Source: a virus. From it: a stretch of DNA of 41,208 bases. Shown here one piece after another: positions 3,880 to 31,817 of the stretch; position 1 is the first letter of the stretch; every line of letters starts with the position of its first letter. The notes under the pieces are model-generated. The model was given only the letters and a program-made list of their open reading frames with translations. It ran no database searches and had not been told where the DNA came from. Both the position numbers and the translations under genes were made by a program. Location: the IMG/VR virus record IMGVR_UViG_3300005535_000011; one strand, given 5' to 3'.

Positions 3880-5090
3880 GCAATACGGCATATCCGGGGG
3901 CTATTGATAGTCCAACTAATCCGTCCACAAATGACACGTTGGCAACCGTTCCACATCACACGCAACACGGACTTGTAAACGATGCGGTCGTGGCCATAGA
4001 AACTAAGCTTGGTACTGGCTCATCTGGTCAGACGCCTAGTAATGGCGCCTATCTTGTGGGCAACGGTTCGGGCGCTACGCAATGGGTAACTACCCTCACG
4101 AGTCCTAGTATTACAACATCACTTTTAGACCTAAATAGCAAAACCTGGATAGGACAGAGCGCAGCCGGTGCAAGTGCCGTGAATTATCCACTGCTTGGAA
4201 ACTCGACGACAGGAAATGCGGTTACTTACGGGGCCGCCGGAACGGATAGCAACATTAACACAAATATTGTCCCTAAGGGTTCTGGCAAAGTTCAGGATAA
4301 TGGGTCAAATCTTATTGATTTTCGTTCGAGCTTTTCCAATTTTGTGCAGACTGGCGGCGTATGGACTCAAAACTCTGGACTTGTGGGCTCAATGACGGCA
4401 GCAACGATTTGGATTAATGGTGTCGAATACAGTGTGGCGGCGGTCAGTAATCACACGTTTGGCGCCTCTGTTGATACGTATATCGACTACACCGTCGGAA
4501 CGGGTATTGTTTATACGGCAGTATCCAACAACGCGGCTTCGCCCAGCCTGGCTGCAAATTCGGTGCGGCTCGCTATTGCTGTTTCCGGTGGAGCTTCGCT
4601 CTCATCGTTTAATCAGGGTTCCCTATCGGCTACCGCGCCAACCGTATCGGGTAGCGTGCTTATGGTTTCAGATTCACTCGGCAATTTAATTTATCCGGTC
4701 GTTCCAAACCAAAACCTAATAGGGTATCGCCAGATTACCGCTAACACAAGCGGTTTCACGACCATTGCGGACATTACGGGCCTCTCCGTGCCAGTCAACG
4801 TTCCCGCCGGACGAAACATTGAGGTAAGCGCGCTCGGACACTACAATACAACTGTTTCAAATGACACCATGGCTTTTGTCATACGGGAGGGTTCCACGTC
4901 CCTGCAAGACGACACCGAGGGTACGATTGGTACGTCGCCCAATTTTGGATTCAGAGTTGCACAACCGTTATCTCCTTCCGCCGGTGTTCATACGTATAAG
5001 CTTTCGGCTCAACGGCTCTTCGGTAGTGGAACGGATATTATCGTCGCTAGCAGCACCCAGCCTGCATACATAAAGGTGAATCTCGTATGA
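3876..5090 (+). CDS. tail fibre protein (404 aa from ATG 3876)
   Basis: The N-terminal motif HHTQHGLVNDAVVAIETKLG (H-x2-H ... IE-x-KLG) is a common phage tail-fibre N-terminal signature. The ORF track begins at TTG 3858; ATG 3876 forms an ATGA overlap with the upstream stop. Confidence 0.65.
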   Translation: MSNTAYPGAIDSPTNPSTNDTLATVPHHTQHGLVNDAVVAIETKLGTGSSGQTPSNGAYLVGNGSGATQWVTTLTSPSITTSLLDLNSKTWIGQSAAGASAVNYPLLGNSTTGNAVTYGAAGTDSNINTNIVPKGSGKVQDNGSNLIDFRSSFSNFVQTGGVWTQNSGLVGSMTAATIWINGVEYSVAAVSNHTFGASVDTYIDYTVGTGIVYTAVSNNAASPSLAANSVRLAIAVSGGASLSSFNQGSLSATAPTVSGSVLMVSDSLGNLIYPVVPNQNLIGYRQITANTSGFTTIADITGLSVPVNVPAGRNIEVSALGHYNTTVSNDTMAFVIREGSTSLQDDTEGTIGTSPNFGFRVAQPLSPSAGVHTYKLSAQRLFGSGTDIIVASSTQPAYIKVNLV

Positions 5091-6070: not shown

Positions 6071-7603
6071 ATGAATCCGCAAATGACGTTCGTACCACCG
6101 TCGCCTACCGACCAGCAGGGAGATGAAGAAGCCAAGCAATGGGTCATAGACCAGTTCTATGGCGGTATTTCTGATGCTGAAAAACAGATCGTCCGAACAA
6201 CTTATTTACTCGAAAAGCAATACCAGTTTTATTTCGCTCAAAACGGCGACATTCTGAACGACGCGGGTTGGTTTACGATCAATCGTTCTACGGTTCTCGA
6301 TTCGCCTACTGGCATGATTACCGCCCTGCCCAAATGGATAGTGAGTGGTCAGCCTTATACGTCTAACATTTATATTTACTGCGCCGATGGTAAAATGTTT
6401 TCGCGGGACGCGAACGGTCAATACAAGTTTTTATTTCAAGCGCAGGATTCCCAAGGCAACGGATTGGCGCAGTGGCTTGGATACCTATACTACACAACCA
6501 ACTCGAGCGTAGGCATTTACGGGCCGGTTAGCTCGCCCAATCCTGCGACCCGTAATGATTCGTACCTCACCCAAGGATTTAATAATACGGCGCTTACCGG
6601 TCTGGCCCCGATTAATACAGACCTTCCTTTTTTATCAATCGGTCACGGAAATAACTTAGGTAAGTTTGACGGTACGAACTGGACGCCCAACCAACTGACC
6701 ATTCCAAACGGAAGCTACATACGATCTATGGACACGGCGAACAACATGCTATCCATAGCCACGGCATCAGGACAAGGGACACTTAGCAAAAGCGTAGGGT
6801 ATATATTTTTCTGGGATGGCGCGAACTATACGTACAATAACTGGGTGCGAGCCGACGCTGGTATCGACGTAGTTCTTAGTAATAAAAACCGGCTATTAAG
6901 CGTGGTGGGGGCAAATAATGCCCTATATACAGACACTTCCCCTTTTCAGAGCTTTCAACGCTTCCCTAAGCTTCGTACGTCAGATCGTATACAAGTATTG
7001 CCCGGCTCTGCGACTAATTATAATGGCGTGGCGCTTTTCGGTGTAGCAAATACAACAACTTCTTCCACATTGCAACAAGGAATATACCATTGGGGGAATC
7101 GGTGTGACGCATACCCGGAGGGTCTTAATCTTGATTACACGATTTCGACCGGCAACACAACAAACATAAGCATCGGTGCCACCTATTCTACTGGCCAGCA
7201 ATTATTCATTGGCTGGCAGGACAACAACACCGGAACGTACGGAGTAGATATCGTAAGTGGTAGTAATCCTTACTACAATTCGGCGTTTATCGAGGGGCTA
7301 GTTATCGACGACATGCGCCCGGTTGACGACAAGAATGGGCTCACCATTAAGTGCTCTCACCTCCCCCTGCGCGCCGGTGAGGGTATTCAGCTTGCTTTTA
7401 AGGTTAATCGTGGCAGCTACGTGCTTTCTACTACTAATAACGTTGTCGGGTCGGTATACACCAAATTCCCTATCATTGGAGATTACGCGCAGTTTAAAGA
7501 AATACAGGCCAAGGCAATTTTGAGTTCGACGGGCGCTACGTCGCCGACCCTAACAACGCTCGGCGTAGCATACATGCCGCAGTTAACACAGAGCCAATAC
7601 TAG
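6071..7603 (+). CDS. virion-module protein, function unknown (510 aa)
   Basis: AAGG RBS. Long ORF in the structural block with beta-rich composition. Confidence 0.55.
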   Translation: MNPQMTFVPPSPTDQQGDEEAKQWVIDQFYGGISDAEKQIVRTTYLLEKQYQFYFAQNGDILNDAGWFTINRSTVLDSPTGMITALPKWIVSGQPYTSNIYIYCADGKMFSRDANGQYKFLFQAQDSQGNGLAQWLGYLYYTTNSSVGIYGPVSSPNPATRNDSYLTQGFNNTALTGLAPINTDLPFLSIGHGNNLGKFDGTNWTPNQLTIPNGSYIRSMDTANNMLSIATASGQGTLSKSVGYIFFWDGANYTYNNWVRADAGIDVVLSNKNRLLSVVGANNALYTDTSPFQSFQRFPKLRTSDRIQVLPGSATNYNGVALFGVANTTTSSTLQQGIYHWGNRCDAYPEGLNLDYTISTGNTTNISIGATYSTGQQLFIGWQDNNTGTYGVDIVSGSNPYYNSAFIEGLVIDDMRPVDDKNGLTIKCSHLPLRAGEGIQLAFKVNRGSYVLSTTNNVVGSVYTKFPIIGDYAQFKEIQAKAILSSTGATSPTLTTLGVAYMPQLTQSQY

Positions 7604-13058: not shown

Positions 13059-13469
13059 TCAGCAGTGGTATTTAATACGTATCTGGTCGAGTTGATCGCT
13101 CAATGTAAGGTACTGACCCTCGAGCGATTTCACCTGACCTTCTTTTATGGGGTCGGCCCCCGCTAGCTCGCTCAAATCATGAGTGCTAGGAAGAAGCGAG
13201 GCACGGCCTATAACTAGTTGGCCTATTCCGTTGAGCTGATCGTTGATTGTCTGCATCTTTTGTTGTACGGGTATTGCCTGGTCGCATTCTTTTTGGGGAG
13301 CGCCACTGGTTGGTACTAGTGTCGTGGGGGCCGAATATGCAAGAGTATGACCACCAAGTTCAAAGTATCCAACCATACTTAGCAAGAGTAGGATAAATGC
13401 TACGGAGGATGCGATAATTAACGAATATTCAGTAATTTGATGTCTGTCGATGCGGAATTTTATGCCCAT
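13059..13469 (-). CDS. membrane-anchored protein with its own promoter (136 aa), moron-like
   Basis: N-terminal TM helix (YSLIIASSVAFILLLLSMVGYF). TGaTATAAT promoter 11 nt upstream of the ATG and no SD. Its stop abuts the stop of the converging + gene with 0 nt between. Confidence 0.55.
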   Translation of the reverse strand: MGIKFRIDRHQITEYSLIIASSVAFILLLLSMVGYFELGGHTLAYSAPTTLVPTSGAPQKECDQAIPVQQKMQTINDQLNGIGQLVIGRASLLPSTHDLSELAGADPIKEGQVKSLEGQYLTLSDQLDQIRIKYHC

Positions 13470-13480
13470 AAGACGTATGA

Positions 13481-13489
13481 ATTATATCA
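13481..13489 (-). promoter_or_regulatory. Extended -10 promoter TGaTATAAT (minus strand) for gene 13059..13469
   Basis: The reverse complement of ATTATATCA sits 11 nt upstream of ATG 13469 and overlaps the stop of the upstream gene. Confidence 0.45.
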
Positions 13490-13717
13490 TACATCTTTCA
13501 AAAAATCGTGTACCGGCTTATTCTTCTCAATAAACTTCTCTTCATTGGTAAGAGGGCGTATCGGACCCGACTTAGTGTCTGGGCTTGGCTCGAACATCTC
13601 TTTTAGGTAGTTATAGGCCGATTCAAACTCACCATCCAGCACAAATTCGGGTGTTTGGATGTGTCCATATTTGGTTCGCACCTCTGGAATAAGAGGTCGT
13701 CCATCTATACTATTCAT
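13487..13717 (-). CDS. hypothetical protein (76 aa)
   Basis: Overlaps the upstream gene by 8 nt. Last gene of the chaperonin cassette. Confidence 0.55.
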   Translation of the reverse strand: MNSIDGRPLIPEVRTKYGHIQTPEFVLDGEFESAYNYLKEMFEPSPDTKSGPIRPLTNEEKFIEKNKPVHDFLKDV

Positions 13718-13931
13718 TGTATAGCTTGTCCTTAACCGCTGAATGTGTGAAAAGATAGTGTTTGTGACAGGTGGGACACTCCAAATAAGTATCCTCGGCC
13801 TTACTAAGCTCCAGGTTGATATTATGACAAGGAAGTTGAACCGTATAATGCTTCTGTTTTTCGCGCTGGTTATAGAACTCGTGAAAACGCTGCTTTATTA
13901 GGTCGGCATCGGTCAGCATTGAGTACGTCAT
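13710..13931 (-). CDS. hypothetical Cys/His-containing small protein (73 aa)
   Basis: ATGA-coupled to the groEL stop. Contains CH..(17)..CPTCH, a possible zinc ribbon. Confidence 0.55.
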   Translation of the reverse strand: MTYSMLTDADLIKQRFHEFYNQREKQKHYTVQLPCHNINLELSKAEDTYLECPTCHKHYLFTHSAVKDKLYNE

Positions 13932-15580
13932 ACCACGCTTGCTTCGTCGGTCTTCTCTTCGTCAGCAATAATCACACCAGAGGTAAGCAGGCTCATGGCC
14001 GCAGATGTGGCATTTTGAAGTGCTGAAATAGGTACTTTGACCGGGTCAATGACCCCGGAAGATATAAGCTCTTTGATAGTACCGTCTATTACGTCAACTC
14101 CGAGTGTGGAGCGCTCGCTCTCTTTGGGCCAGCTATAAGTTGCCTGCAAGAGGCGTTCAAGCATCTGCCCTGGTTCAAGGCCGCTGTTTTCCATGAGAGT
14201 TTTAAAAGGCCACTGCATTGCCTTTATCACAAGCTTATATCCGGCCACCACTTCTTCGGAGCCACTAACTTCGCCAAGGTGCTTCTCGAGTTCCCAGGAG
14301 GCCCGTAGTAGCGGTGTTTCGCCACCCGCAACAATACCCAACTCGTTAGCCGCCTTAATGGCACCTACAGCGTCAATCGCGCGCTCCTTTAGCTCTTTGG
14401 CCTCACCTTCACCGCGAGCACCCACGTTGATGATCGCAATACCTGAAGTTAGCTTGGCTATCCGTTCTTGCAAACGCTCAACTTCAAATTCAGACACGTT
14501 TTCTTTCTTAATCCGAGACTTGAGCAAATCGACACGTTTTTGGATATCGTCAGGATGGCCACCACCATTTACGATAGTCGTACTATCTTTGGAAGCGACG
14601 ACCTTTTGGGCGTGTCCAATATCCTTTTTGGTGAGGCCGCCTTCTTCGCCTACTTCTAGTGTACGTCCTGCGGCCCTAGATATGAACTGGCCGCCTACCG
14701 AGATAGCAATGTCTTCGAGACGTTCCTGTTGTTCGTCCCCAAAACTGGGTGCGCGTACAGCCAATAGATGTAGGCCTTTCATTTTATTGTGCAACAATAC
14801 CGCCAAGGCAACTTCTTTAACGTCCGGAGAAATAATAACGAGGTTGTCGTTTATGTCGAGTTCCATCATTGCCTCGAGTACCTTTTGGATGTCCGAACCG
14901 CTCGATAGGGTGTAATCGGTAACGAGTACGTTGGCGTTATCCACAGCCGCCTCATCAAATTCAGGATTGGTTAAAAAGTACCGGCTCAGGTAACCTTGGT
15001 CAACTTCCATACCGTCCTTGTATTCGGAATAGATGTAGTTTTGCTTGCTTTCCTCAACCGCGATAACAGCATCGTTACCGAGCTTGTCGAAGGCCTTGGC
15101 AACTTCGCCGCCAACCTTATCGTTTTGCGATGCAATGTTTGCCACTTCTAACTGTTGTTTGTTGGTCTTAATCGGTGTGGCGGCGCCTCTAAGGTACTCA
15201 ACAACCTGCTCCACGGCTTTCTCTACGCCACGGCGTAACATTTGAGCGTTATGTCCGGCCGCGACAAGCTTGCGACCCTCGGTAAATAGTGAGTTAGTAA
15301 GAATAGTGGCGGTGGTCGTGCCGTCGCCCGCCTCATCATTTGTCTGTTTAGCGGCCTCTTTGACGATTTCTTGCGCAGCTGCCACAAATGGGTCTTTGGG
15401 GTCGAGTTCCTTCGCAACGGTTACGCCATCGTGTACGACCCCGGGGGTTCCGAAAGGTCGTTTGAAGATTACGTTATGAGCGCGTGGTCCAAGGGTCGCG
15501 CCTACGGCTCGTTTCGCCTCTTCAACACCCTCTTTAATCTTTGCGTACGCATCTTCTTCAAATAATACTATCTTACTCAT
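13928..15580 (-). CDS. groEL: chaperonin GroEL (Cpn60), phage-encoded (550 aa)
   Basis: The translation is collinear with bacterial GroEL: TLGPRAHNV, the ATP-site motif EAGDGTTTATIL, IVAGGETPLLR and SALQNATSAAMSLLT. It lacks the C-terminal GGM tail (ends ..DEEKTDEASVV). Confidence 0.92.
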   Translation of the reverse strand: MSKIVLFEEDAYAKIKEGVEEAKRAVGATLGPRAHNVIFKRPFGTPGVVHDGVTVAKELDPKDPFVAAAQEIVKEAAKQTNDEAGDGTTTATILTNSLFTEGRKLVAAGHNAQMLRRGVEKAVEQVVEYLRGAATPIKTNKQQLEVANIASQNDKVGGEVAKAFDKLGNDAVIAVEESKQNYIYSEYKDGMEVDQGYLSRYFLTNPEFDEAAVDNANVLVTDYTLSSGSDIQKVLEAMMELDINDNLVIISPDVKEVALAVLLHNKMKGLHLLAVRAPSFGDEQQERLEDIAISVGGQFISRAAGRTLEVGEEGGLTKKDIGHAQKVVASKDSTTIVNGGGHPDDIQKRVDLLKSRIKKENVSEFEVERLQERIAKLTSGIAIINVGARGEGEAKELKERAIDAVGAIKAANELGIVAGGETPLLRASWELEKHLGEVSGSEEVVAGYKLVIKAMQWPFKTLMENSGLEPGQMLERLLQATYSWPKESERSTLGVDVIDGTIKELISSGVIDPVKVPISALQNATSAAMSLLTSGVIIADEEKTDEASVV

Positions 15581-15806
15581 CCGTGCCTCCCTTTTCTGGT
15601 AGTTCTACGATCTCCATTTTATCGCCATCTTTTAGCCCAACTCCTACGGTATCGACCCCTAAATCCATTAGTGCCTGTAGCAAATGCTTACCTGCACCGA
15701 GGGTCACTTTTCCCTTGTTAAAGACAATCAGGTATTTTTTTTGTGGGTCGAGCGCGATAGCATCCACGTTAACAATCTTCACAGAGGTTTGTTTAGATCG
15801 AGGCAT
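15573..15806 (-). CDS. hypothetical protein inserted between groES and groEL (77 aa)
   Basis: 8-nt overlap with the groEL start and 14-nt overlap with the upstream ORF, so it is translationally coupled. Confidence 0.55.
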   Translation of the reverse strand: MPRSKQTSVKIVNVDAIALDPQKKYLIVFNKGKVTLGAGKHLLQALMDLGVDTVGVGLKDGDKMEIVELPEKGGTDE

Positions 15807-16137
15807 ATATCTTCTCTTTCATATTCTCAAGCAGTCTATACACTTCGGAAACCTGCGTGACGCTTCCAATATGCATACCCTTGATGATGCTGTTTATGGT
15901 CGTGATAGCGGCTGCCGTTTTGTCGGTCTCTGCCTCGACTTCAAGCGGTATGCCCCTAAAGTTCGTGAGTACCTGGCCGCCTTCAAAGAAAAACTTCTCG
16001 GCCTGGTCTTTGCTTACCAGCAGAGCGTCTGGAAACCGATTGGGTTCGTTGGCCGTTCTGTAGGCTTCAACAAGGGCACCGATCACCTTCGGGTTTACGT
16101 CCTCATCGGACAGGGCAAGAAGAGATATCTTACTCAT
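15793..16137 (-). CDS. hypothetical protein inserted between groES and groEL (114 aa)
   Basis: 8-nt overlap with the groES stop. Uninterrupted ORF. Confidence 0.55.
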   Translation of the reverse strand: MSKISLLALSDEDVNPKVIGALVEAYRTANEPNRFPDALLVSKDQAEKFFFEGGQVLTNFRGIPLEVEAETDKTAAAITTINSIIKGMHIGSVTQVSEVYRLLENMKEKIYASI

Positions 16138-16426
16138 CGGCTTCTTCTACCTTAAAGAGCAGGTTTTCAAAATGAACAGCGATGTACTTTTTGACGCCCA
16201 GGGTCATGACAAAGTGGTTGTACTTCTTATAGGCGATCACGTCGTTAACCTTTGGGACGTGTTTTGCATCGTATGGCATCTTTGAGAGCGGGTCGCCAAC
16301 GGCGACGACTTTACCCACCTCGGGCGCATCTTCGGTGTCACCTTTTGGCATCTCGAAATTGCCAATCTTTTTATTAAGCGTGTGTGGCTTTAATATTACA
16401 TACCCCGGAAGAGGATTAAGGCGCAT
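16130..16426 (-). CDS. groES: co-chaperonin GroES (Cpn10)-like (98 aa)
   Basis: GroES pattern: MRLNPLPGYVILKP (M-x-[IL]-x-PL-x-x-x-V-[IL]-x-K), GKVVAVG, VNDVIAYKKY. First gene of the chaperonin operon, preceded by TGtTATAAT. Confidence 0.75.
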   Translation of the reverse strand: MRLNPLPGYVILKPHTLNKKIGNFEMPKGDTEDAPEVGKVVAVGDPLSKMPYDAKHVPKVNDVIAYKKYNHFVMTLGVKKYIAVHFENLLFKVEEADE

Positions 16427-16451
16427 ATTACAATTCCCTTACTATAAATAT

Positions 16452-16460
16452 ATTATAACA
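16452..16460 (-). promoter_or_regulatory. Extended -10 promoter TGtTATAAT (minus strand) for groES operon
   Basis: About 25 nt upstream of ATG 16426 and just downstream of terminator 16493..16515. Confidence 0.5.
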
Positions 16461-16492
16461 AAACAAAAGCGTTTTGGCAATTTACAGCTACG

Positions 16493-16515
16493 AAAAAAGC
16501 CCCACGTATGGAGCT
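16493..16515 (-). terminator. Rho-independent terminator (minus strand)
   Basis: Minus-sense AGCUCCA-uacg-UGGGGCU followed by UUUUUU. The single non-Watson-Crick pair is G.U only on the minus strand (C/A on plus). Confidence 0.6.
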
Positions 16516-16539
16516 TCTCTCGGTTGACGGCCTGGTGTC

Positions 16540-16548
16540 ATTATATCA
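16540..16548 (-). promoter_or_regulatory. Extended -10 promoter TGaTATAAT (minus strand), only about 25 nt upstream of a terminator hairpin (about 40 nt to its U-tract)
   Basis: Read on the reverse complement: CACTTGTGATATAATGACACC. Confidence 0.4.
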
Positions 16549-16562
16549 CAAGTGCCGTGCAG

Positions 16563-16615
16563 ACGCCGGAGTAAAGCAGCCGATCATTCATAATTAACAG
16601 ACCTTACTCCGGCGT
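16563..16615. repeat. Hairpin with perfect 12-bp stem (ACGCCGGAGTAA / TTACTCCGGCGT), 29-nt loop
   Basis: Read directly. It lies between two of the tandem leftward promoters. Confidence 0.8.
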
Positions 16616-16633
16616 TTACACACCACTAAGTCG

Positions 16634-16642
16634 ATTATATCA
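16634..16642 (-). promoter_or_regulatory. Extended -10 promoter TGaTATAAT (minus strand)
   Basis: Reverse complement GCGATTATTTGATATAATCGAC. It shares GATTATTTGrTATAAT with the promoter at 16800. Confidence 0.4.
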
Positions 16643-16799
16643 AATAATCGCTGCTGGCAAAATACCCCGTAAACTAGAAAATGCCTGCATTACCTCTGGA
16701 AGAAGCAATTACAAGCATTTTTCTAAAACGCTGAACACGTTTATAGCTGTTTATACTCGGATAAGCAGCTATTTTTAATACCCGAAAGTATATGTGTGT

Positions 16800-16808
16800 A
16801 TTATACCA
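16800..16808 (-). promoter_or_regulatory. Extended -10 promoter TGgTATAAT (minus strand)
   Basis: Reverse complement GGGGATTATTTGGTATAATACAC. The -35 region overlaps a GTTTTAGAAA repeat. Confidence 0.4.
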
Positions 16809-16883
16809 AATAATCCCCACTTTCTAAAACAAGCTATCTTGAAGCGTAATTGCTGCAAGTTTTAGAGTTGTGAGGGGATTATT
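16809..16883. repeat. Composite 75-bp dyad: outer AATAATCCCC/GGGGATTATT, inner TCTAAAAC/GTTTTAGA
   Basis: Outer arms are 16809..16818 / 16874..16883 and inner arms 16823..16830 / 16859..16866. A third TCTAAAAC lies at 16722..16729. The dyad overlaps the -35 region of the promoter at 16800. Confidence 0.7.
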
Positions 16884-16929
16884 CTGTCGTTCCGTCGCAA
16901 GTGTATTTTATGCGCCTGCGCCGTATTCG

Positions 16930-17340
16930 TCAATTCTCAACATGTGCTTCCTTCTGTGGCTGCCCGCAGTGTCGCTTGTTATATTCCCGAAGTTCATCAA
17001 AGTCAGAAACCGCCTTAAGCTTGTCGTATCTAGTGCCGCCGAGCCTATGGAACAAGACATACCTAAAGTTGTCTAGGTCTTTGGCAGCGTTACTGGCACC
17101 CTCCAAGTTCATTACGTGTGTCATTTGTTTTTTCATGTAGTATGCCTCGCACATATATTCTACTAAAACGTCATTGTCCAGTTCTTCGACTTCTTGGATT
17201 GTCATAGTTTTATCATACCACTTACCACACTCTCCACCACATACGCCAAACCAGCACGGAGCCTTTGGGGTGGATGGTCTCAATGCGCAGAAAGTATCTG
17301 GTACCAAGTAGCGTACGTTTTGAGGTGAGTACGCGGCCAC
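16930..17340 (-). CDS. hypothetical protein (136 aa from GTG 17340; alternatively 92 aa from ATG 17205)
   Basis: The ORF track start is GTG and overlaps the upstream ORF by 119 nt. An internal ATG at 17205 would remove the overlap. The N-terminal part is Cys-rich (CWFGVCGGEC). Confidence 0.5.
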   Translation of the reverse strand: MAAYSPQNVRYLVPDTFCALRPSTPKAPCWFGVCGGECGKWYDKTMTIQEVEELDNDVLVEYMCEAYYMKKQMTHVMNLEGASNAAKDLDNFRYVLFHRLGGTRYDKLKAVSDFDELREYNKRHCGQPQKEAHVEN

Positions 17341-17626: not shown

Positions 17627-17917
17627 TTATTCTCCTTCTTTCTTAGTATCTAGGCCAAGGGTTTGGCGGATGTCAGACCGTAAGTTATTGCGCCCTTCAT
17701 CCCAATTGTTTAGTTCACTGTAGGAATCATCGTCGCCTATTGCCGCCTCTACCTCTTTCTTGCTTAGGTAGTTGGCTTGGATGTACTCCTTAACTTCGTG
17801 ATACTCTGGGAGATTATAAATGGCCTCATGTGACTTAATCCTGCATTGCGCACCGTAAGCGAATAAAATTGCATCAAGATTTTTGCTTTCGCTACTATTG
17901 GATTGTTGGTCGCTCAC
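17627..17917 (-). CDS. hypothetical acidic protein (96 aa)
   Basis: 4-nt overlap with the upstream gene. Confidence 0.55.
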   Translation of the reverse strand: MSDQQSNSSESKNLDAILFAYGAQCRIKSHEAIYNLPEYHEVKEYIQANYLSKKEVEAAIGDDDSYSELNNWDEGRNNLRSDIRQTLGLDTKKEGE

Positions 17918-18213
17918 AACTTCTCTCCATAGACTGACTGCATTGTATTTTCAATGCAGTAGATACTATTAAATATCATCTTCGTTACTGCCTCAGGTGG
18001 AACACCATGCGTACCTTGCAGGTGAAAAAGTACCTCAGTGTTGTAGTTTGGCTGAAGCTTCCCGGGCGTCGGAATTTCGACAGGCAGGATAACTGGTTTC
18101 TCAAACCTGTGCTTGCACATCCAGCATTTTGTGCGGCCAGCCCACATTTTAATCACCTCTGGTTTGGCTCGAAGCGGAGCGTTGGCGATATTGGATTGTT
18201 GGTTAGTCATCAT
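17914..18213 (-). CDS. hypothetical protein (99 aa)
   Basis: Uninterrupted ORF in the leftward early operon. Confidence 0.55.
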   Translation of the reverse strand: MMTNQQSNIANAPLRAKPEVIKMWAGRTKCWMCKHRFEKPVILPVEIPTPGKLQPNYNTEVLFHLQGTHGVPPEAVTKMIFNSIYCIENTMQSVYGEKL

Positions 18214-18382
18214 TCTGTCCCAACTCCTTCAGCTCCTGAAGTCTTACAAGTACGAGCATCAGCTGGGCCTTGAGCTTTAGGTCTATGTCATTGGCGATCA
18301 CTCGCTCAATAACAATATTCAAAACATGCTCTGGGTTTTGCTTAGTCAGTCTAACCACCTCGTTTATGAATTCAATGGTCAT
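18203..18382 (-). CDS. hypothetical protein (59 aa), not in ORF track
   Basis: MTIEFINEVVRLTKQNPEHVLNIVIERVIANDIDLKLKAQLMLVLVRLQELKELGQNDD. It fills the 18214..18371 gap and overlaps both neighbours by 11 nt. Confidence 0.5.
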   Translation of the reverse strand: MTIEFINEVVRLTKQNPEHVLNIVIERVIANDIDLKLKAQLMLVLVRLQELKELGQNDD

Positions 18383-18656
18383 GGCCTGTCTCCTTATTAG
18401 TCTTAATATAGCCGCCCGCCTCTGGCTTAATGTAAATCTTGGCGTCGTGCTTACTATCGTCTATCCAAGTCATTTTCTTAGTCACCGTCTGGGTTTTTAG
18501 CCCTCCCACTTCGGCAACACTGTCTATAAGCATGCCCATATGATTTCCGAAGTGATAAAAAGACTTAAGATCAACCAGAAAATCGTCAATGCTCTCTTCT
18601 GGTATTTGGAAGATGTCGGTTATCTTTTCTATCTCATAACGTTTTGGGACGCTCAT
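18372..18656 (-). CDS. hypothetical protein (94 aa)
   Basis: ORF in the leftward operon. Confidence 0.55.
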   Translation of the reverse strand: MSVPKRYEIEKITDIFQIPEESIDDFLVDLKSFYHFGNHMGMLIDSVAEVGGLKTQTVTKKMTWIDDSKHDAKIYIKPEAGGYIKTNKETGHDH

Positions 18657-18672
18657 TGTCTTAACTCCTGCA

Positions 18673-19065
18673 TTAGTTTTGATCCTTGGTTAGCACTTCA
18701 ACTTTAAGTAGTTCAATAGCAAGTTTCGCGGCGGCATCTTCGGGAGTAGTAGCGTATGCGTAGTGCTTCTGCTTGAGCCAAGGGGTATAGCAAACCCAGC
18801 GGCCATACCAGTCTTTTAGATCTGTAGCAGTTGGATTGTCGGGATCTACATACTTTATGGACACACCAAAGGCTACCTGTATTTTCCGTAGCAAGTAGCC
18901 AAGATCGTAAGCAGGAAGTTCGGTATATGCACTATTGTTGCCTACTCCCGGACGTAGCCAGGGTGCATAGTCGCCCTCATTTGCGACTGCCCAGACAAGA
19001 TACGTCTTGTCCCACCCAGAGAGGTTATATAGCTCTTTGCAAAGTTCAAGGCTTGGTGCGTTCAT
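18673..19065 (-). CDS. hypothetical protein (130 aa)
   Basis: ORF in the leftward operon, with a 4-nt overlap with the upstream gene. Confidence 0.55.
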   Translation of the reverse strand: MNAPSLELCKELYNLSGWDKTYLVWAVANEGDYAPWLRPGVGNNSAYTELPAYDLGYLLRKIQVAFGVSIKYVDPDNPTATDLKDWYGRWVCYTPWLKQKHYAYATTPEDAAAKLAIELLKVEVLTKDQN

Positions 19066-19358
19066 TGTTTTACCTCGCTATTGGTAGGAGCGATGTCTTG
19101 AAGAAAAACTTTTAGAGTTCTGCCATCATCCTGCAAGTTGTAGGTGACATTAAATGGCTGGTCTTCCCCAATGGCAATTTCACTGGTTTTTCCGTCTGGT
19201 AGAAATTTAATTACCTCAAAACGGTTAACCACGTCTTTTCGGTTCTCCCTATCCTGCTTAATGAGCGCCATAATAGCGTCCAGAAGCGAGGGGGCACACA
19301 AACCATGCTCTGCTGTAACCTGAAACTCAATCTGCTTACGTAATCCTTCATCATCCAT
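19062..19358 (-). CDS. hypothetical protein (98 aa from ATG 19358; track start 19400)
   Basis: ATG 19358 (MDDEGL..) has GGAG about 10 nt upstream and overlaps the methyltransferase stop by 8 nt. ATG 19400 would overlap by 50 nt. Confidence 0.5.
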   Translation of the reverse strand: MDDEGLRKQIEFQVTAEHGLCAPSLLDAIMALIKQDRENRKDVVNRFEVIKFLPDGKTSEIAIGEDQPFNVTYNLQDDGRTLKVFLQDIAPTNSEVKQ

Positions 19359-19932
19359 TGGTTTTTTCTCCAAATACGGTTTGGGGCGTAAGTTCCACAT
19401 CCTGTGCTAACTCATTACCCCAATTATCCCAGCCACCTGATTCTTGGCGTGCAAATAGTTCAACACGCGGTACATCGCCCATGAGCCTTACTATTCTGTC
19501 ACGCACTTCCCCAGGTTTTTTTGAATGTTCCTCGATTGGCGACATGACAACTTGTGCCACAGAAGCATCGCAACGCTTAGGATTCCCCTTAACGCCAAGC
19601 AAGCATATTTCTGCGTTAGTTCGCGTCCACTGTCCCATGCCGAAGAAGGGTGTACCTGATTTTTTATTTGTCTTTACCCACGTGAAGGCTACGGTTTTAT
19701 ACTCAAACCCCCAGGCCTTTAGGGTGTACAAGGCTTCAGGCAGCATAGGATAGGTCGCCCACAGGAAAAGGGTTGCGTCATCTGCACTAATTGAACTAAC
19801 GGGCAAGTTGTATATGTCAACACTACGCATTGTTTTGTATTGTTGATTTTGTGCTCTACCGCCGTGCAAGCTTTTAAAAACAGTGTAGTTCCATGGCGGG
19901 TCAGCATAGATTATTTGATATTTTTTATTCAT
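19351..19932 (-). CDS. DNA N6-adenine methyltransferase, MT-A70 family (193 aa)
   Basis: Catalytic DPPW motif in IIYADPPWNY near the N-terminus. The size and downstream conserved blocks (LFLWAT, GxGxWTR) fit the phage MT-A70-like methylases. Confidence 0.8.
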   Translation of the reverse strand: MNKKYQIIYADPPWNYTVFKSLHGGRAQNQQYKTMRSVDIYNLPVSSISADDATLFLWATYPMLPEALYTLKAWGFEYKTVAFTWVKTNKKSGTPFFGMGQWTRTNAEICLLGVKGNPKRCDASVAQVVMSPIEEHSKKPGEVRDRIVRLMGDVPRVELFARQESGGWDNWGNELAQDVELTPQTVFGEKTNG

Positions 19933-20219
19933 TGTGTCTTTCCTTCCTGTTTGAGGTGGCGCAGACGCCGTTCGTTGTTATCGATAAACTTTTGCAACTT
20001 ACCTTTCCAGTTGGTACTGTCACTAAAGGTTTGGCCTCGGTAGTTATCTAAAGCGACGGCGTTGAGTTCATCCAGGCGCGCCGCGTTAGTTACGTCGTAA
20101 AAGAAAGTGGCCTCATCGTCAGAAATATCCATCTCCGAATCTTTACGGGTGAAGTAGTGCTGGCCTTTAACAAAGCCGAGTGAGGCCATCCAGGCTGCTA
20201 CTTTTTCTTGTTTGGTCAT
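19929..20219 (-). CDS. hypothetical protein (96 aa)
   Basis: 4-nt overlaps on both sides. Confidence 0.55.
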   Translation of the reverse strand: MTKQEKVAAWMASLGFVKGQHYFTRKDSEMDISDDEATFFYDVTNAARLDELNAVALDNYRGQTFSDSTNWKGKLQKFIDNNERRLRHLKQEGKTQ

Positions 20220-20497
20220 GACTCAACCTCTGGCAGATCAACCGTTGACCCTGCAAAGCCATGGGTACAATCGCCTAGAAACTCAATGCGACCCTCACGT
20301 ACAAACGAATGGCAGCGCTTATTTGTACCTGCTTCTATCCATTCAACGAGTACAGAGGGACTAAGCGTCGGGTGCTCGTAGTTGCCGTTGAACTCCCAAG
20401 TATTATCTACACCGTGGTATTCATTGCAGCCTGGACACATAAACATATGGCGGTAAAAGCTACCGTCAACATCGGTTGCATCTTTTATCTTACTCAT
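20216..20497 (-). CDS. Cys/His-rich phage protein (93 aa), DUF6527-like from memory
   Basis: The pattern CPGC..H...W.FNG....PT.SPS......CHSF...G.I.FL.DC.H recalls a conserved phage family. It needs an HMM check. Confidence 0.5.
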   Translation of the reverse strand: MSKIKDATDVDGSFYRHMFMCPGCNEYHGVDNTWEFNGNYEHPTLSPSVLVEWIEAGTNKRCHSFVREGRIEFLGDCTHGFAGSTVDLPEVES

Positions 20498-20957
20498 CGC
20501 GGGTACCTTTCTTGAGTTGCTGGAGCAATTCTGGATGATTTACATTAAAACTTGGATCAGCGAGCATCTCGTCAATCTTTTTAGCGCCGCCGTTGCAGTA
20601 AAATGCCTCAAGTTTACGGTACTCACCCGCGCATTCAGCATTATATTCACCTGGCAATGATTCAAACTTTTCAGCAAGATAGCGAATGGCGCGCCAAGGT
20701 TTATTGGCGATGTCATCTAGGTTGTCGATTAGCTCATCTTCAGCGGCTTGTACAGCAGCTTGGAGGTGGGCGGCGAAGAGTTGCATAAGCCCATCAATAT
20801 GATCACGATCTCCACCAGACAGTTCATTATATTTTAACCCAGTTATTTTAGAGCATATCTTGTCGCGCAGCTCCCCATCTACTGGGTGGGTGGGCTGAGT
20901 ACCGAAGTCACGTAAGTGATCTGGTGTTACGCCTTGGTTTTGTTCTGTATCATTCAT
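20490..20957 (-). CDS. hypothetical protein (155 aa)
   Basis: 8-nt overlaps on both sides. Confidence 0.55.
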   Translation of the reverse strand: MNDTEQNQGVTPDHLRDFGTQPTHPVDGELRDKICSKITGLKYNELSGGDRDHIDGLMQLFAAHLQAAVQAAEDELIDNLDDIANKPWRAIRYLAEKFESLPGEYNAECAGEYRKLEAFYCNGGAKKIDEMLADPSFNVNHPELLQQLKKGTRDE

Positions 20958-21393
20958 TGCTGGCCTCGACCTCTAGGACGTCATCAGTTATCTCGGGTTC
21001 TACGGATGTATTAGGGCTAGTGTCTCGCATCCAGCCACCATAGTAGCCATTGCTTGAGTTGCGGAATGAAAAGACAGAGCTTACCTCACCAAATTTAGGG
21101 TCTTCAGTTGTAATACGGTAGCCGTAACATTCGATCTCTTCATACTCATCGGGTTTGACCTTAGCTCGCGGGTCATCCTCTGACAATTCTACAGACTCGA
21201 ATGAAGTAATAGGATTACCAGCAAGGAGCTTCTTAACCCCTATGAAATCGTAGAAATAGCTGTGTGAACAACAATCGCCTTCGACAGTGAATACGAAGTT
21301 ACCACCGTCGGTGACGAACTTTAAGTATTCTTCGTTTAGAAATATATGCTTTACGGTCTTGCCGATTAACTGTTTAGTACTTGCGTCGTACAT
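20950..21393 (-). CDS. hypothetical protein (147 aa)
   Basis: AAAGGAG RBS upstream. Contains an EGDCCSHSYFYDF block. Confidence 0.55.
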   Translation of the reverse strand: MYDASTKQLIGKTVKHIFLNEEYLKFVTDGGNFVFTVEGDCCSHSYFYDFIGVKKLLAGNPITSFESVELSEDDPRAKVKPDEYEEIECYGYRITTEDPKFGEVSSVFSFRNSSNGYYGGWMRDTSPNTSVEPEITDDVLEVEASNE

Positions 21394-24427: not shown

Positions 24428-25483
24428 CTAATACGCGATTTCTCCGTTCTCAAATGCTCTTACGTCCTCACTACTAACCGAGGTAAACATAGCCTTGATC
24501 AGCTCAATACCTTCGCGGATGCGTTCAGCTGGCATATTTTCAATGTAGGTCTTTGCGCTGGTACCAAATACTTCTTTAAGCACTTCTATACGTTTCTTTT
24601 GTACGGCGGCGGCGTTACCCGCCAGGTCATGCTCTACTAGAAGTTCTTGAAGCTCTTCAAGGGCAATGTCACGCTGCTTACGGCGCTCCGAAAGCGAGTA
24701 GTCCGGGCTTTCGAACATGTCCTCGGAGTTTCGGCTAGTGTCCACGCCGACATGTTCACCACCGATGTTCAAGGACGAAATGACCGTCATGAAGTTTTCA
24801 AATTTTGGATAGTCGATGGCTTTACCATTCATGGTGTCGGTGCGATCTTTCAGGACGTAGCAACGGTTTATCCAGCCCTTGTCGTCGTCCTTTCGTATAC
24901 GCTCCATTTCGAGTAGTAAGTCTGACTCGTAGCCAAATTCGCCTTCCGCCTTCATTTTGACGCCTGTCTTAAGTAGTTCCTTTTTACCTGATTCATCTTC
25001 GGACATATCGTATTCGTAACCGGCGCGTCCGAGTACGATGACGTGAATTTTGCTGTTAATGAAGGCGTCTGTGAACTGCTGCCACTCAGTTTTAACTTTG
25101 CCCCAATCCTGGAATAGCAAACCGTTGCTGCGGCGCAACCTATTTTCATAGCTCGTTGTCAGCTCGCGCCAGACATGCGATATAGAGTCAATGATTGCGA
25201 CGCTGTACCCCTCTTGCTCCACCTCCTTCATGAATGCGAGCAGGTCTTTGAACGAGCGAGATTTTACGCTATCCAGCTGAATATTTTGTTCTTGGAAGTA
25301 CTTGACCAGGAAGTCCGAACCCTTTTCGGTGTCGAAAAAGGCTATTTTCTGGTTTTTCCCCTGATCTAGTTTTGCTATGCCTGCGGCAATCCGCGAGGCG
25401 GTGTATGTCTTACCACTACCTTGAAAGCCTAGTATACCGGCCTTTAGATAAGCGGTTTGATTCTTTGCTGGTTTTAGCAGCAT
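24428..25483 (-). CDS. P-loop ATPase (RecA-superfamily / Sak4-like phage AAA ATPase) (351 aa)
   Basis: Walker A GFQGSGKT at residues about 19-26. Walker B-like hhhhD (VAIIDS). AAGAGGAG RBS. The family assignment is inference. Confidence 0.65.
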   Translation of the reverse strand: MLLKPAKNQTAYLKAGILGFQGSGKTYTASRIAAGIAKLDQGKNQKIAFFDTEKGSDFLVKYFQEQNIQLDSVKSRSFKDLLAFMKEVEQEGYSVAIIDSISHVWRELTTSYENRLRRSNGLLFQDWGKVKTEWQQFTDAFINSKIHVIVLGRAGYEYDMSEDESGKKELLKTGVKMKAEGEFGYESDLLLEMERIRKDDDKGWINRCYVLKDRTDTMNGKAIDYPKFENFMTVISSLNIGGEHVGVDTSRNSEDMFESPDYSLSERRKQRDIALEELQELLVEHDLAGNAAAVQKKRIEVLKEVFGTSAKTYIENMPAERIREGIELIKAMFTSVSSEDVRAFENGEIAY

Positions 25484-27042: not shown

Positions 27043-27909
27043 CTAATGACTATGATAGCGCATAAACACTTCTTCTTCCCTGTTTTCCAGGTGAGAATAT
27101 ATGTCGCCCGTAACCTGTATGCTGGCGTGATTCATGAGCACCTGAAGAGATTTGAGGCTGCCCCCATTGTAGATAATATCCGATGCATACGAGTGCCGGT
27201 AGACGTGCGGCGTGATGTTCTTGCGGATTCCCGTTACCTCCTCAAGCTCGTGCAATATCTGCTCAACTCTGGATACGGTTATGCGTTTTCCCTGTGACGA
27301 AGTGAAGAGGGGGCGTAGCTGATCGTGACGCGTGGCTAGATAAGCATCAATATGCGCCTGAACGGTGGTATTAAAATAGAGCCTTGACTTGTTTCCGGCC
27401 TTGTCCTCGACCCAGAGCTCCTTATTGCCGTGTTCCGTAGCTGGTGCGTATTCGTAATACTCCCGGTCTACGCTCAGGAGCGCGCTGATACGGCTTCCGG
27501 TGTGGAATAAGGCGCTTACAATAGCCTTGTCGCGAGGGTTTCTGGTTGCAGCGACGGTCTTTTCTATTTCCTCGACTGTTAGATATGTATGATTGGTCTT
27601 GCGTTTGCGGCGCGGAACATCAATCGAGTCAGGATTAATTACTGCCCTGCCCTGCTGTCTGCAATAACGAAGCACTTTGCATAAGCATTTGACGCACGAG
27701 TAGATATAATTTGCGGACTTTCCCTCTTGCTGCAAAATAACTTTCCAGCGTATAACGGCGTCTTCGGTTAGGAGTTCTATAGGCGCATCGCCTATATTAC
27801 GTATTAATGAATTGCACGCCGTTCGATAGTTCGCCTGCGTTTTGGGTGCAAAATTATTAGCCTGTAGCCCATAAAGGTCATACAGGCGAAACGCCTCACT
27901 AATTGTCAT
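27043..27909 (-). CDS. int: tyrosine recombinase / integrase, XerC/D-like (288 aa)
   Basis: Catalytic residues readable: R in HTGSRISAL, H-x-x-R in HVYRHSYAS, H in LMNHAS and the nucleophile Y in GDIYSH. The N-terminus resembles a SAM-like core-binding domain. GGGAGA RBS. A tRNA-3'-half attP lies 160 bp downstream. Confidence 0.9.
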   Translation of the reverse strand: MTISEAFRLYDLYGLQANNFAPKTQANYRTACNSLIRNIGDAPIELLTEDAVIRWKVILQQEGKSANYIYSCVKCLCKVLRYCRQQGRAVINPDSIDVPRRKRKTNHTYLTVEEIEKTVAATRNPRDKAIVSALFHTGSRISALLSVDREYYEYAPATEHGNKELWVEDKAGNKSRLYFNTTVQAHIDAYLATRHDQLRPLFTSSQGKRITVSRVEQILHELEEVTGIRKNITPHVYRHSYASDIIYNGGSLKSLQVLMNHASIQVTGDIYSHLENREEEVFMRYHSH

Positions 27910-29947: not shown

Positions 29948-30445
29948 ATGGCAAACAACCCCAACGCAGCAGCAAATCTTACACCAGTGGTAGCCGGTCA
30001 GGTACTCAACCCAAACGGCCGTCCTAAAGGCTCTAAGAGCATTTCTACCTGGATTAGAATGTTGATGGAGGATGAGAACTTTGAAACTAACCTGCTCGAC
30101 TCCAAGCGTGGCCTCATCGAATATAAAGGTGCGCCAATCAAAGCTCTAATCCATGTAGCCATTCACCGGGCCATTCACGACGACAAGAATGGGCATAAAT
30201 GGGCCGACTGGCTTGGCAAGTATGGTTACGGCATAGCCATTAAGCTTGAGGAAGAGCATAAAGTAGAGGTCGTGCATATTTACAAGCCTGAAAAGGCTAC
30301 GCTGGAGGATTTTAACCAGCAAGGTGAGATACTACGTTTGAAGGCGCGTGAAGCGGTCGAGGTAATGGAAACGGAAATGAGTGATTTGGAAGGCACAAGC
30401 CGGTCCACAAACAATGGCGCTTCAAGTGCCGGACTCGGTCAATGA
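29948..30445 (+). CDS. putative terminase small subunit (165 aa)
   Basis: The N-terminal NPNGRPKGSK motif is seen in small terminase/DNA-binding packaging proteins. It lies immediately upstream of terL and overlaps it. No SD; a TGaTATAAA-like element ends 4 nt before the ATG. Confidence 0.5.
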   Translation: MANNPNAAANLTPVVAGQVLNPNGRPKGSKSISTWIRMLMEDENFETNLLDSKRGLIEYKGAPIKALIHVAIHRAIHDDKNGHKWADWLGKYGYGIAIKLEEEHKVEVVHIYKPEKATLEDFNQQGEILRLKAREAVEVMETEMSDLEGTSRSTNNGASSAGLGQ

Positions 30446-31817
30446 AATACTGTTTGGTGGTGCCCGAGGTGGTGGTAAAACAGATACAGGCCAGATATGG
30501 CTTGCTGAGCATGTCAAAAATCCCCGCTACCGTGCTCTAGTCGTACGCAAGAACTCGGATGACCTAAAGGACTGGGTTGACCGTGCGGCACGAATGTACC
30601 AAGGATTGGGAGTGCACATTGCATACAGGCCTTGGGAGCTTACCTTTCCAAGTGGCGCCAAGATTCTTACTGGCCACCTGAAAGACAAAGACGCCTACAC
30701 CAAATACCAGGGCCACGAATACCAGCGTATGCTTATTGAGGAGTTGACCCAGATACCAGATGAGCTTAGATATTTACAGCTTAAAAGCTCCAATCGTTCA
30801 ACCGTGCCAGGCCTACCAGCCCAAATGTTTGCTACTACCAACCCAGGCGGTGTCGGGCACACCTGGGTGCGTAAACGATTTGTTGACTTCGCGCCATACT
30901 ACCAAATTACCACTGATAACTTTGGTTTGCGCCGTGTATACATCCCCGCCACCATTGACGACAACCCCGCATTGAAACAAAGCGACCCTGACTATGTACG
31001 ACAACTCGAAGCCCTGAAAGAAACTGACCCTGATCTATGGAAGGCATGGCGTCTAGGAGACTGGAATATCATTGCCGGCCAAGCCTTCCGTGAGTGGAAT
31101 AGGCTTATGCATGTCACGCCGCGCTTTGACTATCCGCTTAGGGAATGCAAAAAGTTCATAGGCTTTGACTGGGGATATCATGCCCCAGGTGTTGCGGTGT
31201 GGATTGCTGTCACTCCAGAAAATAAGTACGGTGTCTCACGTGTATACGTTTATCGTGAGCTGTGGCTTACCCAAACTGACCCGAAAGAGTGGGCTAGGCA
31301 GCTCAAAATGATATCCAAGATTGATGGTGTTCGGGATATGTGGCTACCGCACGACTGCTTCAACAAAGAGATGGGCGAGAGCATCGCAAACATATTTCAT
31401 CGTGAGGGCGGCATGAACGTTAGACCCGCCACCACGCTTAAGAAAGGAGCACGGCATATGCGCAAGGCAATTATGCACTCTGTTTTGGGCGATGCGGCAG
31501 ACGGTAGGCCTTACCTACAGATTCATCCTAACTGTGGACAACTGGCCAGTTCCATACCTGAGCTTATTAACGACGATACCGACCCAGAAGACATTGACAC
31601 CGAAGGGCCTGACCACGGGTACGACGCCCTAACAGAGGCTTTAATGATGGAAGTACCAAGCTTTGGACATTCCAGCGGCATACGGCAGAGTGATGCGCCT
31701 TATTTGCAGCCAGTTCGCTTCCATGCGCTACCTGATGGCTCTATATTGCCACCTGATATCATGGACGCGGTGAAACACTATCAGTCCATGCCGGAGCGTC
31801 GCCCGGTATCTAGGTAA
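30381..31817 (+). CDS. terL: terminase large subunit (478 aa)
   Basis: N-terminal GPQ..(14)..ILFGGARGGGKT Walker A, typical of TerL. Size and position (upstream of lysis/portal/capsid genes) fit. Confidence 0.85.
   Translation: MIWKAQAGPQTMALQVPDSVNEILFGGARGGGKTDTGQIWLAEHVKNPRYRALVVRKNSDDLKDWVDRAARMYQGLGVHIAYRPWELTFPSGAKILTGHLKDKDAYTKYQGHEYQRMLIEELTQIPDELRYLQLKSSNRSTVPGLPAQMFATTNPGGVGHTWVRKRFVDFAPYYQITTDNFGLRRVYIPATIDDNPALKQSDPDYVRQLEALKETDPDLWKAWRLGDWNIIAGQAFREWNRLMHVTPRFDYPLRECKKFIGFDWGYHAPGVAVWIAVTPENKYGVSRVYVYRELWLTQTDPKEWARQLKMISKIDGVRDMWLPHDCFNKEMGESIANIFHREGGMNVRPATTLKKGARHMRKAIMHSVLGDAADGRPYLQIHPNCGQLASSIPELINDDTDPEDIDTEGPDHGYDALTEALMMEVPSFGHSSGIRQSDAPYLQPVRFHALPDGSILPPDIMDAVKHYQSMPERRPVSR

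Follow-up and report, generated by a model that had tools for sequence, protein, structure and literature searches.

Here we describe a six-gene chaperonin cassette on the IMG/VR virus record IMGVR_UViG_3300005535_000011, a stretch of 41,208 nucleotides (nt) that we call the window, meaning the whole stretch at its full length. An earlier note, made from the sequence alone, had proposed six minus-strand open reading frames (ORFs), with two small ORFs between groES and groEL and two more behind groEL, and we observe that all six are present. In gene order, they are as follows (aa, amino acids).

16426..16130, minus strand: Cpn10, a GroES-like co-chaperonin of 98 aa
16137..15793, minus strand: orf114, 114 aa, with no recognised fold
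15806..15573, minus strand: orf77, 77 aa, a sporadic accessory small gene
15580..13928, minus strand: GroEL, a group I chaperonin of 550 aa
13931..13710, minus strand: orf73, 73 aa, an N-terminal helix and a zinc-ribbon-like β domain
13717..13487, minus strand: orf76, 76 aa, a small protein with an SGP motif

We compared 18 informative phage loci (designated by L numbers), scored with phmmer and family hidden Markov models (HMMs), and found orf114, orf73 and orf76 to be conserved and syntenic in chaperonin-encoding phages, in a survey that the earlier note had itself named as able to overturn its proposal of a link between the small genes and the chaperonin. GenBank phages showed no DNA-level match to the window, and among their GroELs the closest, from Manatee Spring (MW202566), reaches 41% identity. 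The GroEL relatives recovered from a large protein database fall into three tiers, with about 25 GroELs at 63–84% identity, many of them on 37–41-kb contigs, followed by a second tier near 50% identity and by cellular GroELs near 44%, mostly from Patescibacteria (Ca. Daviesbacteria). Pattern scans of IMG/VR with GroEL, orf114 and orf73 profiles gave no match, nor did a search of GTDB genomes with the orf114 profile for a prophage or host, and two further candidate relatives (L098 and L099) were discarded as spurious pattern matches.

The most constant of the small genes is orf73, which lies downstream of GroEL in 16/16 loci covering this position (L001–L010, L012, L013, L015, L016, L097 and the window), across GroEL identities of 41–84%. 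Its start falls mostly within ~10 nt of the GroEL stop, the exceptions being loci with an HNH gene (L005), a 91-aa ORF (L001) or a 102-nt gap (L006) at this junction. Proteins of the orf73 family (24 representative clusters) all stand alone and measure 64–89 aa, and the family is met only with this GroEL group; judged by this distribution, orf73 is the most deeply conserved GroEL companion. The next gene, orf76, follows orf73 in most loci. Not counting the window, 10 loci have it, and an SGP motif (SGP[IV][KR]…) is invariant in the alignment. In L010 and L016 (GroEL identity 45–47%), orf76 carries an N-terminal transmembrane (TM) helix that is missing from the window orf76. The emphasis that the earlier note placed on the inserted genes therefore moves downstream, since orf73 and orf76 are conserved more deeply. 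We also observe that an unannotated ORF of the Manatee Spring phage (L001 6897-7139, corresponding to MW202566.1 7932-8174), one gene downstream of the annotated groEL, belongs to the orf73 family (HMM E 6e-17).

On the other side of GroEL, Cpn10 is found beside it in every phage locus covering that side. Within the clade of 63–84% GroEL identity, orf114 is directly upstream of GroEL in 11/11 loci, and it still adjoins GroEL in L003 despite an HNH gene between orf114 and Cpn10; it is absent from L001, L009, L010 and L016, and there Cpn10 adjoins GroEL. The orf77 gene occupies the place between orf114 and GroEL only in L002, L013 and the window, and is absent from L014 (81% identity over a partial GroEL of 94 aa) and from other clade loci. 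The two ORFs described as wedged between groES and groEL are thus unlike one another, orf114 being fixed in one clade only and orf77 being sporadic and changing position.

Across 80 cellular groESL loci, the Cpn10 HMM matches 76 and the four small-ORF HMMs match none, which indicates that the small genes are viral additions; their inheritance along with a cellular groESL operon was rejected on the same count. Duplication of Cpn10 or GroEL domains and mutual paralogy were likewise rejected as origins, with hhalign relating no small ORF to Cpn10, GroEL or another small ORF (probabilities ≤1.3%). It could be argued that the small ORFs are spurious, given that they are short and that most have a weak or absent Shine-Dalgarno (SD) sequence, but intact homologs with conserved motifs occur in up to 16 divergent loci. 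Furthermore, synonymous sites are saturated in all six cassette genes at low nonsynonymous divergence (dN 0.12–0.53; ratio of nonsynonymous to synonymous divergence, dN/dS, ~0.17 where calculable), from which we conclude that all six are real genes under purifying selection, and antisense ORFs are fragmented in relatives, as seen for a 204-aa antisense ORF at 15541–16155 that is broken up there. With sequence conservation already refuting it, we give the spurious-gene reading practically no weight.

With respect to the small proteins themselves, the earlier note had suggested a fold and profile check of each taken alone, and this bore fruit, weakly, for orf73, which resembles zinc ribbons, while orf114 and orf76 remained without a match. 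The orf73 family shows a conserved pattern PC[HC]…CPxxC, and the CxxC signature noted earlier is present in the window as CPTC. Of the first knuckle, almost all members have C35, mostly with His or Cys at +1 or +2; of the second, C52 is invariant and C55 nearly so. The AlphaFold2 (AF2) model of orf73 (predicted local distance difference test score, pLDDT, 78) consists of a helix and a five-stranded ribbon, and its nearest structures are LysW zinc ribbons (probability 0.9, root mean square deviation ~2.6 Å over 47 residues, but E 0.5); profile matches are weak, and all are zinc ribbons. We therefore refer to orf73 as a putative zinc-ribbon-like protein. The AF2 model of orf114 (pLDDT 78.4) shows a β-α-β-α-β unit and two long C-terminal helices, and its closest Foldseek matches, at E 0.77 in PDB and E 0.24 in BFVD, are not significant. 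No profile match of orf114 to PDB sequences was obtained, and none in Pfam, PHROGs or NCBIfam; its family amounts to only 9 clusters in a 5.8-billion-protein database, without a Pfam domain or name. Used alone as a query against the large protein database, the orf114 sequence returned only itself, and a concatenated orf114, orf73 and orf76 profile returned only orf114 relatives. Profile searches with orf76 in Pfam, PHROGs, NCBIfam and PDB gave nothing significant, and orf77 has no family match in Pfam, PHROGs or NCBIfam.

Small zinc-ribbon proteins are familiar in phages as the late activators P2 Ogr and P4 Delta, and orf73 might analogously be a transcription regulator at the early-to-late boundary. 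Its length of ~73 aa, its zinc-ribbon-like fold and its position shortly upstream of packaging genes in L001, L009, L010 and L016 would suit such a role. Pfam, however, gives orf73 no Ogr_Delta or DNA-binding family even at E ≤ 1, the orf73 of the window clade stands at a convergent gene end, far from the start of the late operon, and the GroEL stop and the orf73 start are tightly coupled, so that we consider a regulator of this kind unlikely.

That the cassette encodes GroEL together with a GroES-like co-chaperonin is borne out by concordant Pfam and PHROGs assignments. GroEL reaches 215 bits against Pfam PF00118 (cut-off 34.3), is named GroEL in PHROGs and exceeds the cut-offs of two NCBIfam GroEL subfamilies (481.6 versus 352 and 480.1 versus 397 bits), while falling below that of the TIGR02348 equivalog (472.6 versus 582.1 bits). 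It scores 369 bits against solved bacterial GroELs and is ~39% identical to E. coli GroEL; by sequence, it is a divergent member of the group I chaperonins. The nucleotide-site residues (TLGP 30–33, D52, D87-GTTT, D398 and D495 in E. coli numbering) are all conserved, and they are identical in 25 clade relatives except for one Thr30→Ser. In agreement with the earlier description of a DGTTTAT ATP site and no GGM tail, we observe GDGTTTAT and a C-terminus (…IIADEEKTDEASVV) without GGM repeats. The closest cellular GroELs are consistently those of Patescibacteria, mainly Ca. Daviesbacteria (43–45% identity), and this lineage could be the donor or the host, a signal that is weak at such a distance.

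The Cpn10 protein matches Pfam Cpn10 over residues 3–91 of 98 (26.2 bits versus a gathering score of 21.1) and the PHROG GroES at E 1e-6, and it lies far below the NCBIfam equivalog cut-offs. In an alignment with E. coli GroES and relatives, its mobile loop reads G-N-F-E-M versus G-G-I-V-L in E. coli, and the apical groove of the window GroEL carries two polar changes, L234Q and V264H, relative to the E. coli sequence. Among 12 phages, a polar mid-loop residue of Cpn10 pairs with H or Q at GroEL position 264 and a hydrophobic one with L or I, a co-variation that holds in 11/12 (the exception is L016). This pattern, behind which lie only one or two evolutionary events, fits a lid and a ring that are co-adapted as a dedicated pair. 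The altered loop and groove also suggest orthogonality to the host system, and they could point to another task for the small proteins, namely, acting on the host chaperonin by blocking host GroEL/GroES or preventing mixed rings. That the small-gene families are viral only would agree with this presumed mechanism, which we nevertheless hold to be quite improbable.

In comparison with known systems, T4 gp31 and RB49 CocO are phage GroES-type lids that work with host GroEL, presumably for phage structural proteins. The phage described here likewise supplies a GroES-type lid, one that matches Pfam Cpn10, but has a GroEL of its own as well. The bacterial groESL operon has the same gene order and ATP-site residues, and likewise an SD-driven groEL and one promoter in front of the genes, whereas the phage cassette has genes inside and after the operon that are missing from the 80 cellular loci, and the phage GroEL differs from bacterial GroEL in the absent GGM tail, the polar L234Q and V264H changes and its score below the TIGR02348 equivalog. 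The view that phage GroEL and GroES are usually not found together is outdated, since a co-chaperonin is present on 40% of viral GroEL contigs and GroES>GroEL operons have been described by Marine et al. in 2017 (PMC5649160). These authors also reported viral GroES mobile loops with a Gly→Asn change and a polar residue in the hydrophobic triplet, and, among recurrent neighbours of GroEL>GroES operons, a small heat shock protein (sHSP) gene on the upstream side and an unnamed ORF on the downstream side (PMC5649160). The cassette resembles these virioplankton operons in its group I chaperonin and co-chaperonin, canonical order and non-canonical loop. It differs from them in that orf114 (sometimes with orf77) splits groES and groEL in one clade, in that conserved orf73 and orf76, which are not among the neighbours in that paper, follow groEL, and in a GroEL whose identity to GenBank phage GroELs does not exceed 41%. 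Genes that part groES from groEL, or a conserved zinc-ribbon partner, did not turn up in the literature that we searched. The joint presence of GroES and GroEL in a phage is therefore already known, and what is new are the conserved, phage-specific companion genes.

The chaperonins of phage EL (gp146), OBP and AR9 function without a co-chaperonin (PMC7185714, PMC9598537). They are likewise phage-encoded members of the Cpn60 family, but the window GroEL scores like canonical bacterial GroEL and is not of the co-chaperonin-independent type, for which no cognate co-chaperonin exists, with Cpn10 lying adjacent in the same operon. Small proteins that cooperate with chaperonins are known elsewhere: BSD2 (a zinc-finger protein), RbcX and Raf1 act after chloroplast Cpn60. 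The CnoX–GroEL 'plugin' is a further chaperonin-associated accessory factor (bioRxiv 10.1101/2022.05.03.490446). All four offer a functional analogy only, as small proteins that bind a chaperonin or take over its client, and no sequence or fold kinship with the small ORFs was detected.

The claim that the cassette has its own promoter, preceded by a terminator, is likewise supported by the sequence, with a near-consensus promoter behind a terminator-like hairpin, and we observe the following signals around it.

16522..16491, minus strand: terminator-like hairpin with a U tract (−19.5 kcal/mol, z −4.5; 0/200 shuffles fold as well)
16480..16452, minus strand: cassette promoter, TTGCCA, 17 nt and TGtTATAAT (extended −10 TG), with 11/12 positions matching
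13489..13481, minus strand: promoter-like motif TGATATAAT, overlapping the orf76 stop codon, 11 nt before the orf136 ATG

The hairpin ends 10 nt upstream of the −35 hexamer, and the promoter, a strong one of the σ70 type by sequence, is placed 19 nt before the start codon of Cpn10. The motif TGNTATAAT occurs in 9 copies in the window versus 1.7 expected, all co-oriented with the local genes and none inside the cassette, and in L002, L005, L006 and L007 an exact copy stops 27–41 nt short of the Cpn10 start, with near-variants elsewhere; the −35 of L002 is identical to that of the window cassette. After the cassette promoter, the next promoter-like motif comes only at the orf76 stop codon, where TGATATAAT marks the end of the cassette unit. 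Because no further promoter motif precedes this stop codon, we predict that the six genes most likely form one transcript. Within it, groEL is preceded by a strong SD (AAGGGAGG), and the weak or absent SD of orf114, orf77 and orf73 is consistent with translation by coupling.

Several further observations concern these signals. The leader (16427-16930, minus strand) contains three more co-oriented copies of TGNTATAAT (16540-16548, 16634-16642 and 16800-16808) and a hairpin at 16616-16558 (−31.6 kcal/mol, z −6.5), and it has no minus-strand ORF longer than 48 aa and no Rfam match; this long leader is not present in L002. The copy at 16540 is followed within ~20 nt downstream by the terminator-like hairpin, and together they could yield a tiny RNA or an attenuator. 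In several relatives, the GroEL C-terminus '…VV*' is coded by GT[AC]GTATAAT (L007 ~6390-6405, L008 ~4236-4250 and L013 ~2460-2474), which places a TATAAT box directly before orf73 that could be an internal promoter; the window, with GTGGTATGA, lacks it. Downstream of the cassette, orf136 (13059-13469, minus strand) is predicted to have a single TM helix; it carries a TGATATAAT motif of its own and a very short leader, and it has a homolog in L002 only.

The overlaps at the five cassette junctions measure, in gene order, 8, 14, 8, 4 and 8 nt, in line with the 4-14 nt reported earlier. Two of them share an exact 13-mer, GATGAGTAAGATA ('…DE*' over 'MSKI…'), which is found at three junctions in the window versus 0.05 expected.

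16126-16138, minus strand: exact copy of GATGAGTAAGATA at the groES/orf114 junction
15569-15581, minus strand: exact copy of GATGAGTAAGATA at the orf77/groEL junction
20486-20498, minus strand: exact copy of GATGAGTAAGATA at an unrelated junction

An insertion scar around orf114–orf77 was considered for this repeat and rejected on account of the third copy and of the relatives, in which the orf114 and GroEL proteins still begin with MSK- although the nucleotide sequence is not retained. It is instead a recurrent start/stop coupling motif of this phage.

As to the wider genome, the longest contig carrying the same GroEL measures 41,235 bp, and for this reason the window is essentially the whole genome, that of an uncultured, probably temperate tailed phage of ~41 kb. 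The encoded tyrosine integrase (27043-27909, minus strand; Pfam E 4e-19) suggests the temperate lifestyle. The window also encodes a Sak4-like annealing protein (24428-25483, minus strand) and the large terminase (30381-31817, plus strand). Rfam and transfer RNA (tRNA) scans gave no match. Most of the large structural genes have no Pfam or PHROG match, and a capsid client is thus not identifiable in this way.

What the synteny means for function depends on whether the small genes stay with groEL for the sake of folding or as hitch-hikers. In the latter case, their functions would be unrelated to folding (host takeover or regulation), and they would share an operon because this phage lineage inherited the way in which its genes are arranged where the early block ends. 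Several observations point this way and weigh against a link with the chaperonin. A chaperone-related domain or fold was detected in 0/4 small proteins, with fold comparisons covering orf73 and orf114. Overlaps in the cassette are nothing special for this genome, where 20/45 same-strand junctions overlap, mostly by 4 or 8 nt, and another run of overlapping junctions lies at 17627–21393 (both from a crude gene map). HNH genes have furthermore been accommodated inside the cassettes of L003 (Cpn10/HNH/orf114) and L005 (GroEL/HNH/orf73), and these homing-endonuclease genes, which we locate as follows, seem to insert preferentially at junctions of the cassette.

L003 4234-4659: HNH homing-endonuclease gene
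L005 6679-7128: HNH homing-endonuclease gene
L004 475-948: HNH homing-endonuclease gene, just upstream of Cpn10

With overlaps this common and inserted genes tolerated, the overlaps give no specific argument for stoichiometric co-expression, as had been proposed earlier. To the same side belong the mobility of orf77, which in L006 lies between orf73 and orf76 and is often absent, the absence of orf76 from L008 and L001 (in L009 its match is weak), and a 972-bp contig (L011), otherwise uninformative, in which a partial non-GroEL ORF lies upstream of the orf73 homolog. Moreover, all loci belong to one broad phage lineage with a common terminase and other shared genes, and part of the synteny could therefore be simple inheritance.

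Yet the distant phages share little with the window outside the cassette except the terminase module, which directly follows the cassette in them and lies 13 kb away on the other strand in the window. The early neighbours are nearly all replaced between tiers, while orf73 is separated from GroEL by 0–1 gene in each of the 16 informative loci; the constancy of orf114 beside GroEL throughout its clade and the confinement of the small orf73 family to this GroEL group also speak against mere hitch-hiking. We regard hitch-hiking as a tentative but serious contender, to which we would give clearly less than even odds.

We favour a reading in which the cassette is a self-contained group I chaperonin operon that has gained phage-specific small genes in layers. 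The ancestral module is Cpn10–GroEL–orf73–orf76; orf114 joined it at the root of one clade, between Cpn10 and GroEL, where it has remained, and orf77 is a recent, dispensable and positionally mobile addition. The chaperonin presumably folds phage structural proteins, and orf73, orf76 and, less certainly, orf114 may be accessory factors made together with it, with possible roles in client hand-off or recruitment, cage tuning or localisation. Such a role would account for the persistence of the small genes beside groEL amid the turnover of their other neighbours. From synteny, which is confounded by shared phage ancestry, a chaperonin-cofactor role is plausible, and to a working link with the chaperonin, for orf73/orf76 or orf114 at the least, we give a probability of roughly 0.45. 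The stronger proposal, in which a group I chaperonin would have in orf73, orf76 and orf114 new cofactors or extra subunits specific to viruses, we consider doubtful.

To our knowledge, group I chaperonins are regarded as two-component systems of GroEL and GroES, and dedicated extra partners are rare. In these uncultured phages of ~40 kb, virus-only small proteins stay at groEL while nearby genes are replaced, and in one clade a gene splits the otherwise near-universal groES–groEL pair, which leaves a candidate list of four proteins of 73–114 aa along with a matched GroEL/Cpn10 pair. Should the candidates not bind, the cassette would be an ordinary phage groESL operon with hitch-hiking genes. 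If they do bind, they would show how viruses customise the folding cage, and as cofactors they would extend the two-component GroEL/GroES paradigm, possibly through client recruitment or hand-off for capsid assembly.

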